A DNA stretch of 64,000 bases. Source: Eledone cirrhosa (taxonomy: Eukaryota). Positions 30,824 to 61,820 of the stretch are shown piece by piece. Each line of letters opens with the position of its first letter. The first letter of the stretch is position 1. Where the stretch lies: NCBI GenBank assembly GCA_964016885.1, contig OZ024762.1:23622001-23686000 (forward strand). Reading direction: 5' to 3'. A program made the translations under genes and the position numbers. The notes under the pieces are model-generated. The model worked only from the letters and a program-made list of their open reading frames with translations, made no database searches and had not been told where the DNA came from.

Positions 30824-32458
30824 GTGATACCAAAAGTCAAGCAACACGCCCGACTTAGCCTATGGATCAACACCCAGGAAGTAATCTCATGGTTCAGCAA
30901 TATGGAGGATAAACGAGACACTAAATTCATACAGTTCGACATAGAGAGCTACTATGCTTCAATCACCTTACCGCTACTTACTGCCGCCTTGGACTTCGCC
31001 GAAGCACTTGTGCCCATCACCGACCAGGAAAGAAAAATCATCCTCCACGCCAGGAAGACAGTCTTACTCTTTGACGACTCTAAATGGATAAAAAGAGCTC
31101 TCGACTCACCCTTCGACGTCAGCATGGGCGCCACGGATTCGGCGGAGGTCACAGATCTTATAGGATTATTCCTAATAGCCAAACTCACTGATATGTTTCC
31201 TGCATTCGGTGGTGGATTGTACCGTGGTGATGGGCTCCTTACCCTTAAAGGGTACAACCCCAGTAGTACAGATCGGGTCCGGAAACAATTAATCAGATTC
31301 TTCCGCGACTGGGGATTTAAAATAACCCTACAAACGTCCCTGACCCGAGTAAACTTCCTGGACGTGACCCTCGACCTCGAAAACGACCTGTACTACCCAT
31401 ACAGGAAACCTAATGACAATCTGCACTACATCCACCGCCGATCAAACCATCCTAGGAACATCACAAACAACCTGGTCAAAAACATCTCCCTCCGCATATC
31501 CCGTTTGTCAGCTAATGAGCGGATATTCGATGAACATGCGCCTTATTACAACCAGGCCCTCAAGCGGAGTGGTTTCCGGGAGGATATATCCTACTGTCCA
31601 GCTCCCATTAGCGGAACCAGCAGGAGACTCCGCCGCTCACGCAATGTAACATGGTTCAATCCTCCCCACAACGCAGAGGTGACAACTCCCATCGGGAAAC
31701 TATTCTTTAGGCTCATTGAAAAACACTTCCCATTACAACACCGCTACCACAACATAATTAACAAAAATACCATCAAACTCTCTTACAGCACTACACCAAA
31801 CTTCGCACAAAACATCGTCTCCTCTAACAACAAAAAACTCAACCCCGATGGCAGAAATAACCTAAATAGCAGTGGAGAACCGACCAGGAGGTGTAACTGT
31901 CCGGATAGATCCATTTGCCCACTCGACAATAGATGCAGAGACCGTAATGTGATCTACCAGTGCAACGTGAGGACGGATACCTCCAACAAAGCCTATATAG
32001 GACTTACCGCATGTGACTTCAAGACCCGGCTATACCAACATAGACATACCTTCCGAAACCCGGCCCGGCGTCACGCCACTACACTTTCGGGCCACATATG
32101 GGACCTCAAGGACAACAACATCACCTATGATCTCACTTGGAGATTACTGTCCAGAGCCAATTCTTACACGGGAGGACGCCGTCCGTGCAATTTATGCTCG
32201 GAGGAAACTTTACAAATGCTGTTTTCGACGGACCAACTCCTAAACAAGAAAGATGAACTGGTTACTGCATGTAAACATAGATTGCGTAGGACTTACCTCG
32301 CCCTCAAACCCTATAATGACCCGGGGGGGTATACTAGGGCTATAACACCCCACTTGCCGATTTTGCAATGGGTAACCCCTGCTTGCCAAGGGAGACGTAA
32401 GATCTTCTTTTTATTCTTTTATCGCTTCCTTTATTTCCTTCCCCCCTTCCCTCCTTAG
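30824..32458 (+). pseudogene. PLE reverse transcriptase + GIY-YIG endonuclease, N-terminally truncated, catalytic YxDD altered to YRGD
   Basis: FDIESYYASI, VSMGA, LYRGDGL, VNFLDVTL, WFNPP, KLSYS, CNC-x5-CPL-x3-C, VIYQC...AYIGLT...FKTRLYQH, CNLC...LLNK...CKH. Confidence 0.9.
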
Positions 32459-33440: not shown

Positions 33441-33555
33441 ACCCCTTGAGAAGATCGGCTATTTAAATACCAGGATAAATTTTCATTTAGTCCAGAATTA
33501 GCCGTCGAAACGGCTTGAGCTCAGCCGTCTCTTATAAGAAAAAAGAAGAAGGGGT
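33441..33555 (+). ncRNA. pLTR hammerhead (U3:A8 core) interrupted by a 21-nt insertion at the cleavage site
   Basis: ACCCC-TTGAGAA-...GGCTA...TAGCC..-GAAA-CGGCT tgagctc AGCCG-TC-[21 nt]-GGGGT. Confidence 0.75.
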
Positions 33556-33568
33556 CTTACTGGTTCCT

Positions 33569-34681
<1,113 letters not shown>

Positions 34682-36236: not shown

Positions 36237-36716
36237 TGGTGGCTGCCAACTCGTTTTCGAGTACGGCCACTACTTTATATCCATGTAGGAGAACCCCTAC
36301 CGATGCGCTGAACGAGTGTGACTTTTTAGTCCAGCCAGCGACTTGAATACTCTGGTACAAACACTACACTTGTGACAATTATTGACACATAGTGCTGGGC
36401 CCAATGTACCATGTGACGACAAGTGCAGAGAGATCTCCAGCTATAAAGCAATGCCTGTGTCGTGAAGGACTAAAATCAAAACCTGTCAAAGGGCGAAGGA
36501 GCTCTTAAGAGTCAATGGCCATCCCAAATCACCGGGAGAGATGACCCCTTAGCCTTTGTCAAGGCAGAATTCTAGGAGAAGGAAAACTCTGATCTAACAC
36601 CTGCAACCCTGATGGTATCCAATGATGTTGACTTGTTCTTCTTTTTGGTAAATATCATCTTGGTTAAGAGAGTGGGACTGGCTTTGTGCAGTGCCTTTGT
36701 TCACTATAAAGCCTTC
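36237..36716 (-). mobile_element. RTE-derived non-autonomous element with 5' inversion
   Basis: 36237-36466 is the 3' part (minus); 36466-36716 is the adjoining upstream part in opposite orientation. Confidence 0.8.
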
Positions 36717-36735
36717 ACATACATACATACATACA

Positions 36736-36769
<34 letters not shown>

Positions 36770-36842
36770 CATACATACATACATACATACATACATACAT
36801 ACATACATACATACATACATACATACATACATACATACATAC

Positions 36843-39479
<2,637 letters not shown>

Positions 39480-41076: not shown

Positions 41077-41626
41077 CATATAATGGCAAGTCCTCTTCTT
41101 CCTTAGTGTCATCCTAATAAGATATCGTGGTTTTGTTGAACTCTATATATGTGTGTGTCTGTGTGTGTCTGTATGCATAGGTGTGAACATATATATATAT
41201 ATACAACACACATATACACACACACACAGACACACACACACATATATATATACACACATATATATATATATATATATAATGGCGATATATTTTGTGAATA
41301 TACAAGATATACAAACGAGAGAAAAGACCAGTCAACACAATGTAAAAGTGGAGAATGCTAACATACATGCACTTCTACATACACACACATGCGTACACAT
41401 ATACACTCATACACACCAATACATATACACACACATACACACATACATATACACACATATACACACACACATACACAGAGACTCATTGGATCCATGAATT
41501 ATATAGATATTATATATAGATATTATATATCGGCTCATTCCTGGATTCATACATTCTATTAACGGACTCAATATAAAACCAATAGTGAAAAAAGAATTGT
41601 ATATCGATTCCTAGAGGTATATATAT

Positions 41627-41804
41627 ATAGGAAAAGAGTCTGCACCCCAACGGCTGAGCTCCGGCGTTTCGACAGCTTGATCCGAAACGGCCAGAGCTCA
41701 GCCGTCGGGGTCCTGACTCTTTTGCTATTACCCACTCTACTAACCTAAGTATCGAGTACTCTGGTGCGTTATGGTCCACCTGGTTTCTTACCACACCCTC
41801 TTTG

Positions 41805-41806
<2 letters not shown>
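41627..41806. mobile_element. Diverged family B hairpin derivative
   Basis: Inverted short arm plus sense arm GAAACGGCCAGAGCTCAGCCGTCGGGGTC and tail. Confidence 0.8.
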
Positions 41807-41858
<52 letters not shown>

Positions 41859-54736: not shown

Positions 54737-55290
54737 ATATATATTGTTATACTTTGGGAGGGTCAAGTTGCCAATAAGAAACACACGCACCAGTTGCTTT
54801 CACTCCAATTTATTATAAATTAAATTATAAAATTTAAAAAAAATTATAAATTTCCGGTTGGTTGGAGGGTTCCACAACCGGACGGTTGTTCATATATTGT
54901 CAAAGATCTTTCGTCACACATTCTGTGACCTCATCAGTGACCGGGATTCTTTTCTTTGTTTTATGCCTCTCCTTTGTTCTGTCCTACGCCATCTTGTTTT
55001 TGTGTGTTCTGTTATATTGAACACACACGAAAACAAGATGACGTAGGACAGAACAAAGGAGAGGCACAAAAACAAAGAAAAGAATTCCCGGTCACTGATA
55101 AGGTCACAATGTGTGACGAAAGAACTTTGACAATATATGAACAACCGTCCGGTTGTGGAACCAACCAACCAACCGGAAATTTATAAAAAAAATTTTTAAT
55201 TTTATAATTTAATTTATAATAAATTGGAGTGAAAGCAACTGGTGCGTGTGTTTCTTATTGGCAACATGACCCTCCCAAAGTATAACAATA
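54737..55290. mobile_element. Inverted pair of family A pLTR-like units
   Basis: 54737-55011 (minus) and 55020-55290 (plus), homologous to 6045-6330. Confidence 0.8.
54899..54941 (-). ncRNA. Canonical minimal type I hammerhead with palindromic GATC loop III
   Basis: Minus strand: GTCA-CTGATGA-g-GTCACA gaatg TGTGAC-GAAA-GATC-TT-TGAC. Confidence 0.8.
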
Positions 55291-55297
55291 TATATAT

Positions 55298-55435
55298 ATA
55301 GGAACGAGTAGGACCCCGACGGCTGAGCTCAAGCCGTTTCGACGGCTCGTTCCTATTACCCACTCTACTACCCTAAGTATTGAGTACTTTGGTGCGTTAT
55401 GGTCCACCTGGTTCCTTACCACATTTCCTTCGTTA
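55298..55435. mobile_element. Family B short inverted derivative
   Basis: Inverted short arm, then sense tail ending CCTTCGTT. Confidence 0.8.
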
Positions 55436-55516
55436 TATATATATCATTTTATCAAACTCTTGAAACTCTGACTTTACCACATAGCATGTATTTCATTTTC
55501 TTATAGCATTTTAAGA

Positions 55517-60329: not shown

Positions 60330-61211
60330 TATTTGATTGATTATGTTGTGGTGTATACGTTTTTTATATTTTCTGGTACATATGCTTTGGTTATGTGTAT
60401 ACGGGAGTTTTGCGTCAGCGTGTGTATGCAGGTTCGTACGTATGTAGGGTGTGTGTATATGTGTACTTCATGTTTTGGCTGACTTACGTCTTCGAACATT
60501 TGTGTATTTACATGTAGGTATGTGGGTGCGCTTGTTATATATGTATTTATTTATTTATATACGTTTATTTATTTATTTATTTGTATACACGCACACACAC
60601 ACACACATATTTATATGTGCGTGGTTTTGTATACCTATGGCAAGTGTTTTGCGTATGCTTGTGTATGTACGTATTTGAATGTGTGTATGCATTTATTTAA
60701 TTTCTATTACCCCTGTATTTATTTACTTTATTCTTAACTCTGAAGCGGAGATTCATTCGGTTTCCTAGTTAGAATTTAGTCTACGACTTCAGCTATACCA
60801 TTTACGTGGTTTTGTCTTTGCGTGCAATTGTTCTCCACGCTCCACATATGACGTATTATCTTCGTTTTTTGCGTTCATTGCCAGAGAACGTCTCTATGCA
60901 CCACCTAAGAGAACATTAGTCTACGACTTCTTTTATACCATAAACGTGGTTCTGTCTGTGCGCGTAATTGTTTTTCACCGCTCCTATTAATGACGTATTA
61001 TATTCGTTTTTTCCCGTTCTTTGCCAGGGAACGTTTCCTCGAACCAAAGTATCGTCTTCCTGTCTTCCTCCGGTTGCAACGTTTTTTGAAATATCCACTT
61101 CTGCGTTTACAGATTGACTTTGTTAGTTTCAGAAGATCCCGTTAAGGGTGAAAGCAGCGATTCTTTGCTTAAACTTTAACCTGTTATTTTAATATATATA
61201 TACGTTTTATA

Positions 61212-61564
61212 GTTTTACCCTTCATTGTTCTACTTACCGTTTCGACTTCCTCCCCCTCCCCAGTATCCTCTTTGACCTCACGCCCAGCTGTAGCCGGCAC
61301 TACCAACGCATGAATGGGTCTACTCCACCCCTCTCCCTTTTTCTCCTACCGGTAGGTTTAGCTACCCCTTCCCCCACCAATTTGCCATCACAGATTTACT
61401 ACTAACTTGTGATGTGACCAATCCTGGTGATTATCTCTTTGACTATATATGGAATTACCCCTTGATAAGCTCGGCTATTTAAATACCAGAATAAATTTTC
61501 ATTCAGTCCAGCCAGAATTAGCCGTCGAAACGGCTTGAGCTCAGCCGTCGGGGTCTTACTTGTT

Positions 61565-61567
<3 letters not shown>
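61212..61567 (+). mobile_element. Solo 3' end/pLTR of the Naiad-like PLE family
   Basis: Colinear with 33210-33568; ends TTCCT then (AT)n. Confidence 0.85.
61457..61554 (+). ncRNA. Intact type I hammerhead, U3:A8 core, predicted cleavage after GUC 61549
   Basis: ACCCC-TTGATAA-G..GGCTA...TAGCC..C-GAAA-CGGCT tgagctc AGCCG-TC-GGGGT. Confidence 0.8.
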
Positions 61568-61629
<62 letters not shown>

Positions 61630-61726
61630 TCCGTTCTCGCAACCATCAACATGATTCAACATCAAAGATGAATGAGTTGCATAACGTCGAGTGCTTTGAT
61701 CATATTACATTACGATATATATATAT

Positions 61727-61820
61727 ATAGGAAAAGAGTCAAGGCCCCGACGACTGAGCTCCGGTCGTTTCGACAGCTAGATCCTATTACCGAGTAGCTT
61801 GCAACACCTTCTTTGTCATA
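61727..61820. mobile_element. Diverged family B derivative
   Basis: TAGGAAAAGAGTCAAGGCCCCGACGACTGAGCTCCGGTCGTTTCGAC inverted arm plus degenerate tail. Confidence 0.6.

Follow-up and report, generated by a model that had tools for sequence, protein, structure and literature searches.

A U3:A8 hammerhead in a Hydra-type Penelope-like element of Eledone cirrhosa and a probable genomic record of its cleavage in vivo

The window analyzed here is a stretch of 64,000 nucleotides from the Eledone cirrhosa genome (contig OZ024762.1, positions 23,622,001 to 23,686,000). On its plus strand, at positions 61201-61569, lies a 5'-truncated, single-arm copy of the pseudo-long terminal repeat (pLTR) of a Penelope-like element (PLE). 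This copy belongs to a subfamily that we call A, is located between (TA)n runs, and ends at the +20 priming site; copies that are 95 to 98% identical to it align from base 12 of the query. A preliminary description of this DNA had proposed a hammerhead motif within the stub at 61457-61554, and direct reading of the sequence confirmed it. The 5' strand of stem I (ACCCC, 61457-61461) is unchanged in 14 of 14 aligned copies and is followed by the core TTGATAA (61462-61468), read as U3-U4-G5-A6-U7-A8-A9. The 5' strand of stem II (61469-61477) consists of G10.1, two unpaired bases, and the first strand of a 6-bp helix, and the 3' strand with C11.1 (61519-61526) doubles as the 5' arm of a rival hairpin at 61520-61535. 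After the core triplet GAA (G12-A13-A14, 61527-61529) comes stem III (61530-61548), in which ACGGCT (61530-61535) and AGCCGT (61543-61548) form 6 bp closed by a 7-nt loop. U16.1 and C17 occupy 61548-61549, the A15.1:U16.1 pair is present, and the 3' strand of stem I (GGGGT, 61550-61554) completes the motif. All of these features are on the plus strand. The predicted scissile bond, between C17 and G1.1 (61549-61550), is also the place where the family's nontemplated inserts and arm ends are found.

The composition of stems I and III, the GUC site with cleavage after 61549, and the pairing of positions 3 and 8 are thus as first described. The palindrome said to cap stem III is there as well, but the loop has only 7 nt (61536-61542) and the 8-nt palindrome overlaps the last A of the stem; apart from a single additional T, the whole stem III hairpin forms an 18-nt palindrome. 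Stem II was absent from the earlier account. It is made up of the G10.1:C11.1 pair, a 2-by-1 internal loop with a C·U mismatch, 6 bp, and a 41-nt loop, and G10.1 stands directly after A9 without an unpaired base between positions 9 and 10.1. A 4-nt duplication within loop 2 (61508-61513) is private to the 61457 copy.

A copy of 2.7 kb has a sister hammerhead of subfamily B at its 3' end (33441-33570, plus strand), whose core does read TTGAGAA from 33446, as had been noted. This hammerhead copy is not intact, as it carries a nontemplated, U/A-rich insert of 21 extra bases (33530-33550) exactly between C17 and G1.1. Further upstream in the same insertion is a 5'-truncated open reading frame (30818-32458, plus strand), which by its motifs encodes a reverse transcriptase (RT) followed at the C terminus by a GIY-YIG endonuclease of the Hydra type. 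An inverted partner arm (30721-30824, minus strand) runs from +103 back to approximately +3 and thereby adjoins the cut site. The full unit of the element, as found elsewhere in the genome, is 3,531 bp long, occurs in tandem, and contains one hammerhead and a 717-amino-acid ORF. In the tandem arrays at loci L041 to L050, hammerheads flank 784-codon open frames, i.e., they are present in both repeats that flank the RT-endonuclease ORF. One such array (G000:C1:437198500-437218300, loci L041 and L042) consists of near-identical 3,531-bp units with intact 717-amino-acid ORFs, a sign of recent activity. The frame at L041 contains the motifs DKT (position 184), YRDD (415), CNCPDRSIC (639), YIGLT (673), CNLC (737), and CKH (765). 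The YRDD of this full copy reads YRGD in the ORF of the window, and the position of the RWK motif reads RWR in the L041 frame, as it does in Hydra-1_Crog. The insertions lie in (TA)n. A Pfam search of the PLE ORF gave no match; the motifs and the (TA)n targets, together with a likeness to Hydra-1_Obim judged by eye, fit a Hydra-type PLE.

Seven further short stubs of the same PLE family are present in the window, at 7337-7584, 14419-14572, 17754-17924, 19812-20036, 41618-41811, 55288-55439, and 61715-61779; most are two armed, arranged head to head, and they represent several subfamilies. The window also contains LINE-type reverse transcriptase fragments at 36652-38525 on the plus strand (RVT_1 E values of 9e-12 and 4e-5, with a weak zf-RVT match). 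Another repeat contributes minimal hammerhead-like motifs with a 1-bp stem III at 6133-6175, 6556-6598, and 55091-55131 on the plus strand and at about 54899-54941 on the minus strand, with the cores CTGAAGA, CTGAAGA, CTGATAA, and CTGATGA, respectively. A long inverted repeat (54961-55069) separates the last two of these motifs.

Genome-wide, exact patterns matched 18,317 3' halves of the ribozyme (subfamilies A and B) and 4,100 5' cores (subfamilies A, B, and E). The motif is not due to chance, as it belongs to a repeat with thousands of copies, reversed-pattern controls gave 0 matches, and the three helices are preserved across subfamilies. With G10.1:C11.1 included, 99.2% of 252 cells in the helices around the core were paired in an alignment of 14 copies, compared with 14 to 60% in slid controls. 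Covariation gives these helices weak support: a change of both partners is seen in 1 of 18 pairs, a level reached by 161 of 500 shuffles, and the covariation score was equaled by 12 of 500 shuffles. The sole double change is from G:C to A:U in stem II of subfamily C. No hammerhead match was obtained when 61380-61575 was searched against Rfam at an E value of ≤10, which is to be expected given the long loop 2 and the variant core. A search of the whole window returned 369 Rfam matches; no hammerhead was among the 150 listed, which were microsatellite-driven microRNA and snoRNA noise. Taken together, the sequence supports the assignment of the motif as a type I hammerhead of a PLE, with predicted self-cleavage.

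From the sequences at 61457 and 33446 it had been proposed that only the free position 7 varies, which does not hold for the family: among the first 100 of the 4,100 cores, read by eye, 84 had U3:A8 and 16 had C3·A8. All 100 thus had one of these two combinations, and none had a canonical hammerhead core. Both positions 3 and 8 were changed in only 5 of the 4,100 cores, 2 of which had C3:G8. U3:A8 is present in subfamilies A and B, in the distant subfamily C, and in part of subfamily E and was thus kept while loop 2 diverged. The share of C3·A8 cores indicates that a copy can be spread without the 3:8 pair. A C3·A8 sublineage is spread within subfamily E, for example, at loci L121, L141-L145, L202, L211, L214, and L216. 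In four public contig sets, subfamily variants were visible and no change at position 3 or 8 was listed. A tree built from 39 pLTRs after masking of positions 3 and 8 set subfamily C (U3:A8) apart; in it, the older copies of subfamily E were mostly C3·A8, and the young copies of subfamilies A and B were U3:A8. Support for the branches in question is weak (81/96 or lower), so we do not claim an order of core changes.

The U3:A8 core had also been put forward as a variant missed by CUGANGA searches, but it was already in print. Cervera and de la Pena (2014, PMC4209133) describe Schistosoma PLEs that carry U3-A8, with approximately 1,300 matches, and their supplement contains UUGAUAA and UUGAAAA rows. 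Natural U3-A8 hammerheads were described even earlier by Perreault et al. (2011, PMC3088659), where in vitro activity is cited. The tabulated Hydra-clade ribozymes are different: in File S2 of Craig et al. (2021, PMC8557442), all 26 Hydra-clade rows show CUGANGA together with a 3- to 4-bp stem III. As read from the sequence, the U3:A8 core is therefore new for the Hydra clade as tabulated in that file, and the 6 bp of stem III are indeed longer than usual, being compared with 3 to 4 bp in 26 of 26 rows.

Evidence for cutting came from the copies themselves. A pattern that covered subfamilies A and B and tolerated 3 to 30 additional bases at any point of a 16-base interval about the site identified 64 copies with such an insert, compared with 18,317 of normal length. 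Of the 62 distinct contexts that these represent, a script assigned 44 to templated local duplications and 13 to nontemplated inserts and classed the other 5 as complex. Every one of the 13 nontemplated inserts is located unambiguously between C17 and G1.1, and none is at the other 16 junctions; the chance that all 13 fall on a site named beforehand is (1/17)^13, or approximately 1e-16. The 13 inserts are all different, are 5 to 30 nt long, and are spread over nine contigs. Their combined composition is 130 A, 49 T, 15 G, and 7 C (89% A/U); eight of them start with T, and one contains a run of 28 A residues. Ten of the tails are in subfamily B. The whole ribozyme is kept in 12 of the 13 tailed copies (2 of subfamily A, 9 of subfamily B, and 1 E-like), all of them U3:A8, whereas in the genome as a whole the 4,100 5' cores are far outnumbered by the 18,317 3' halves. 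By analogy, the inserts look like the U/A and mixed tailing carried out by terminal transferases, which has been reviewed elsewhere (PMC7988573). The same review describes how a cyclic phosphate shields U6 RNA from tailing, so that the C17 end would have to be healed before it could be tailed.

The outer ends of the insertions are fixed at two positions, +20 and +103 from the site, a pattern that Frangieh et al. (PMC11167929) link to internal priming by the RT at two sites. Under a filter of equal strength, 263 arms stopped at G1.1 before foreign sequence, versus 17 at the one control position used (-4), a comparison in which microhomology of the C run can inflate the G1.1 count. A tally by eye of the first 100 of 740 rows, from which joins explained by stem III microhomology were excluded, placed approximately 36 ends at +1 and 2 to 4 at each other position seen between +3 and -10. 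As a rough estimate, 5% of arms end at G1.1. The tailed insertions are distinctive in this regard, as in 9 of 13 the partner arm ends close to the site (at +1, +1, +2, +1, +6, +2, +1, -1, and +3); the partner has the same tail in 1 of 13, and no partner was found in 3 of 13. None of 71 untailed long-arm controls had a partner end between -1 and +6 (Fisher's test, P = 2e-9), and P was 3e-9 when only the approximately 42 controls with a visible partner were considered. The 71 controls are the insertions behind the first 100 of the 4,100 core rows, of which approximately 29 show no partner arm; 28 two-long-arm pairs were judged from coordinates, 42 were inspected in the DNA, and 1 was taken from a 3'-half match.

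Several individual cases are of note. At L188 (G000:C1:372150500-372154100, position 3314) and L135, unrelated sequence is joined to arms that begin at G1.1 or close to it; L188 does not count as another tail. At L073/L074, the same 5-nt insert is present on both arms, which a circle, a shared tail, and a fold-back fit equally. One extra G in the G run of the cut site was seen in 14 of the first 100 of the 740 arm-end rows and can be a homopolymer error or a base added by the RT. A covalently closed, tailed circle was considered as the usual template and is disfavored, given that partner arms stop near G1.1.

Loop 2 contains words that resemble a promoter. A TATA-like word at its start (61476-61483, plus strand), 29 nt before an initiator-like A, is a putative promoter element that is absent in subfamily C. 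The word at 61503-61508 (plus strand), which we take to be initiator-like on the strength of the initiator consensus, lies at -41 in typical copies and is preserved in all subfamilies. Most short arms end there: 174 of 307 contexts, in a set that includes loci chosen for other reasons, had short arms ending at -35 to -45. An extra G precedes 11 of 19 ends at -41, a count that is confounded by head-to-head microhomology and that we do not take as a cap mark. A bacterial promoter scan found nothing, and its model is not applicable to this host. In light of the arm ends and of these words, -41 likely marks the main transcription start, which would place the promoter inside the ribozyme, and most transcripts would then carry only its 3' half. 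For the two halves of the ribozyme, assembly in trans is predicted (-24.5 versus -12.1 kcal/mol).

Folding predictions do not favor cutting by the 61457 copy on its own. The 3' strand of stem II is identical in sequence to the 3' strand of stem III, and this gives rise to the rival hairpin. In the minimum-energy fold of the 98-nt monomer, 61520-61525 pairs with 61530-61535, and C11.1-G12-A13-A14 is buried in a tetraloop. For the 61457 copy, the predicted fraction in the rival hairpin is 0.94 and that in the active fold is 0.002 to 0.01, at odds with its earlier designation as monomer competent. The predicted active fraction is 0.015 to 0.07 for a typical subfamily A copy and 0.27 to 0.30 for subfamily B, whose minimum-energy fold is the active monomer, so that monomer cutting is possible in that subfamily. 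On the folding models, therefore, the long stem III does not make the 61457 copy a predicted monomer, whereas subfamily B may be one. Nor is the 61457 copy the best candidate for a test, as had been suggested: it is a 5'-truncated stub with a private duplication in loop 2, and subfamily B folds better and holds 10 of the 13 tails. The minimum-energy fold of the homodimer is a double hammerhead (-59.3 versus 2 × -23.9 kcal/mol), 11.5 kcal/mol more stable than two monomers. A double-hammerhead dimer was predicted for 10 of 13 distinct sequences of subfamily A, 9 of 11 of B, 7 of 10 of U3-type E, 1 of 2 of C, and 3 of 7 of C3·A8 E. When nine loop letters were shuffled, the dimer gain was equaled in 21 of 200 shuffles and a double hammerhead was formed in 38 of 200, so that a special role of the palindrome is only modestly supported. 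The sixth pair of stem III is lost in subfamily C (5 bp) and in the variant at 19812-19897, and the word GAGCTC is kept in both. With a 5-bp stem, the stem III loop of subfamilies A, B, and C consists of 2 bases, GAGCTC, and 1 base, which is presumably the layout of a retroviral dimer initiation loop. These models leave out tertiary contacts and Mg2+, and on their predictions, gating of cutting by dimerization is slightly favored.

The data presented here indicate that RNA of this family likely self-cleaves in vivo at the bond between C17 and G1.1. With somewhat less assurance, but still on the side of probability, we propose that a U3:A8 PLE hammerhead does the cutting and that it is gated by a dimer or by protein-assisted refolding rather than acting as a free monomer. 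Read-through transcripts would hold the whole ribozyme, while most transcripts would start at -41, inside loop 2, and comprise just the 3' half. A lone RNA would be mostly in the rival hairpin, and two RNAs would pair via the palindromic stem III into a double hammerhead. Once the RNA is cut, its C17 end would sometimes be healed and then U/A tailed by host terminal transferases. The element's RT would prime at +20 and +103 and run off at G1.1, the 5' end created by the cut; one of the strands would end there, and the other may jump to the tailed C17 end and continue, by which the tail would be fixed in DNA. It appears that a minority of templates are cut, unless more are hidden by seamless rejoining, which would be invisible. 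Relevant precedents are an Anolis PLE hammerhead that cuts only with the element's protein and whose RT initiates internally at two sites (PMC11167929) and metazoan PLE hammerheads that act as dimers with low activity (PMC4209133). In the Anolis study, ribozyme mutants were without effect on in vitro insertion, and no transcriptome sequencing (RNA-seq) ends were found at the site (PMC11167929). A bolder version, which we regard as possible but doubtful, is that cutting is a regular, dimer-switched step of transposition. Paired RNAs in a particle would prime both break ends, and the RT would jump from G1.1 to C17, building pLTRs and tandem units across the cut; the 13 tailed copies would then be rare host-tailing scars of jumps that are otherwise seamless.

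Other explanations have to be weighed against a gated hammerhead. The closest is an efficient monomeric ribozyme that owes its activity to the long stem III, whose 6 bp close the junction. It draws on the subfamily B minimum-energy fold, which is active and belongs to the holder of 10 of the 13 tails; on PLE hammerheads of fungi that have a large helix III and cut as monomers (PMC4209133); and on tertiary contacts, which could shift the equilibrium toward the active fold. Against this stand the predicted fractions (0.94 rival and 0.002 to 0.01 active for the 61457 copy and 0.015 to 0.07 active for typical A copies), the 11.5 kcal/mol by which the dimer is more stable, and the loss of the sixth stem III pair in C and in the 19812-19897 variant while GAGCTC was kept, and we therefore hold an efficient monomer to be unlikely. 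It is also conceivable that no RNA is cut and that the RT stalls before stem III, adds untemplated bases, and resumes or drops off. At G1.1, the RT is one base away from the 3' strand of stem III, and retroelement RTs do add nontemplated bases at template runoff (PMC3774820). On the RNA strand, however, A makes up 65% of the inserts, which would require the RT to add T for the most part, in runs of up to 28, and no such insert is found at the 16 other junctions, those of stem I and other stems included. Furthermore, 9 of 13 tailed insertions and 0 of 71 controls have a partner arm that stops near G1.1, as a physical 5' end would cause. The CG at the site permits head-to-head joins, and 13 perfect ones are among the first 100 of the 740 rows, but the filter behind the 263 ends at G1.1 leaves out perfect CG joins. 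Stalling is, in our judgment, quite improbable.

Two further explanations make the hammerhead a bystander. In one, a protein nuclease or 3'-end processing cuts the RNA, or a transcription start at G1.1 is combined with a poly(A) site at C17, and the hammerhead is a passenger. The C-G step at the site agrees with the pyrimidine-purine preference of transcription starts, one insert is nearly pure oligo(A), and loop 2 of subfamily A contains AATAAA (61490). That word is 56 to 60 nt upstream, however, and reads GATAAA in subfamily B, the holder of most tails; the main 5' ends are at -41 and not at +1; and the two ends required, 3' at C17 and 5' at G1.1, would have to fall exactly at the bond that the hammerhead predicts. 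We consider a protein cut or a start at G1.1 very unlikely. The other is that the motif is decayed and inactive, is kept by recent amplification, and has acquired its inserts through DNA repair or assembly errors. The lack of an Rfam match, the weak covariation, and the spread of the C3·A8 lineage would agree with decay, as would the finding that four public contig sets are without cover over the 33530 insert, a gap that proves nothing. Decay is hard to reconcile with 13 different inserts on nine contigs at one exact bond or with a core and helices that were preserved between C and A/B although loop 2 diverged, and it seems to us extremely improbable.

Hammerheads are found in nearly all PLEs, and their role is stated to be unclear (PMC8557442). 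What is new here is genomic evidence, read from sequence, that points to in vivo cutting; the U3:A8 core itself was already published. In a search of the accessible literature, we found no account of tails preserved at the cut site of a PLE hammerhead. The genome likely keeps a statistical record of a bond that was broken in the germ line and of a cut RNA that was tailed and still served as a template. Such a record would also give in vivo support for the activity of a natural U3:A8 core. Counting insert positions is cheap and portable to any PLE family, and the C3·A8 sublineage provides a built-in control.

Several known systems resemble the element described here in part. The closest ribozymes are the metazoan PLE pLTR hammerheads, including that of Schistosoma Cercyon (PMC4209133), which share the type I topology, the place in the pLTR, a 5-bp stem I, G10.1:C11.1, a palindromic helix III, the U3-A8 core, and a predicted action as dimers. 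They differ in that their stem III has 0 to 2 bp, compared with 5 to 6 bp here, and in that the extra base between A9 and G10.1 is absent in our motif. The 37- to 41-nt loop 2 with promoter-like words and the sequence shared by stems II and III, with the resulting rival fold, also set the present hammerheads apart, as do the genomic cut marks, of which none are reported for PLE hammerheads in the portions of PMC4209133 consulted. By its protein, the element is like the Hydra-clade PLEs, e.g., Hydra-1_Obim (PMC8557442), with a C-terminal GIY-YIG domain, DKT, a CxCX5C linker, CxxC, CxH, and (TA)n targets. Its unit of 3,531 bp exceeds the size of generally <3 kb given for that clade, and the ribozymes of File S2, with canonical cores, a stem III of 3 to 4 bp, and a loop 2 of ≤10 nt, differ from the one found here.

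Similar to our proposed course of events, PAc, a Poseidon element of Anolis (Frangieh et al., 2024, PMC11167929), has two internal RT initiation sites downstream of the hammerhead, which makes a tail optional. The PAc ribozyme is inactive alone, and the monomer of the 61457 copy is predicted to be mostly inactive. The two priming sites are 83 nt apart here and 30 to 40 nt apart in PAc; for PAc, no RNA-seq ends were found at the site and cutting was not needed in vitro, whereas here, genomic copies serve as the record. U3-A8 covariation is likewise known from the natural U3-A8 hammerheads of PMC3088659, which are stated there to be active in vitro, and activation by dimerization through helix III, predicted here, is described for the double hammerheads of newt and axolotl retrozymes (PMC7229834). 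The motifs in both of these studies are outside autonomous PLEs, and the need for a dimer arises in amphibians from a helix III that is too short and would arise here from the predicted rival hairpin. R2, with its HDV-like ribozyme, is a different element with a different ribozyme, and its added bases lie between target DNA and element rather than between cut products (Eickbush et al., 2013, PMC3774820). It does parallel the kind of record described here, as in R2, too, genomic 5' junctions mark the cut site and carry nontemplated bases.
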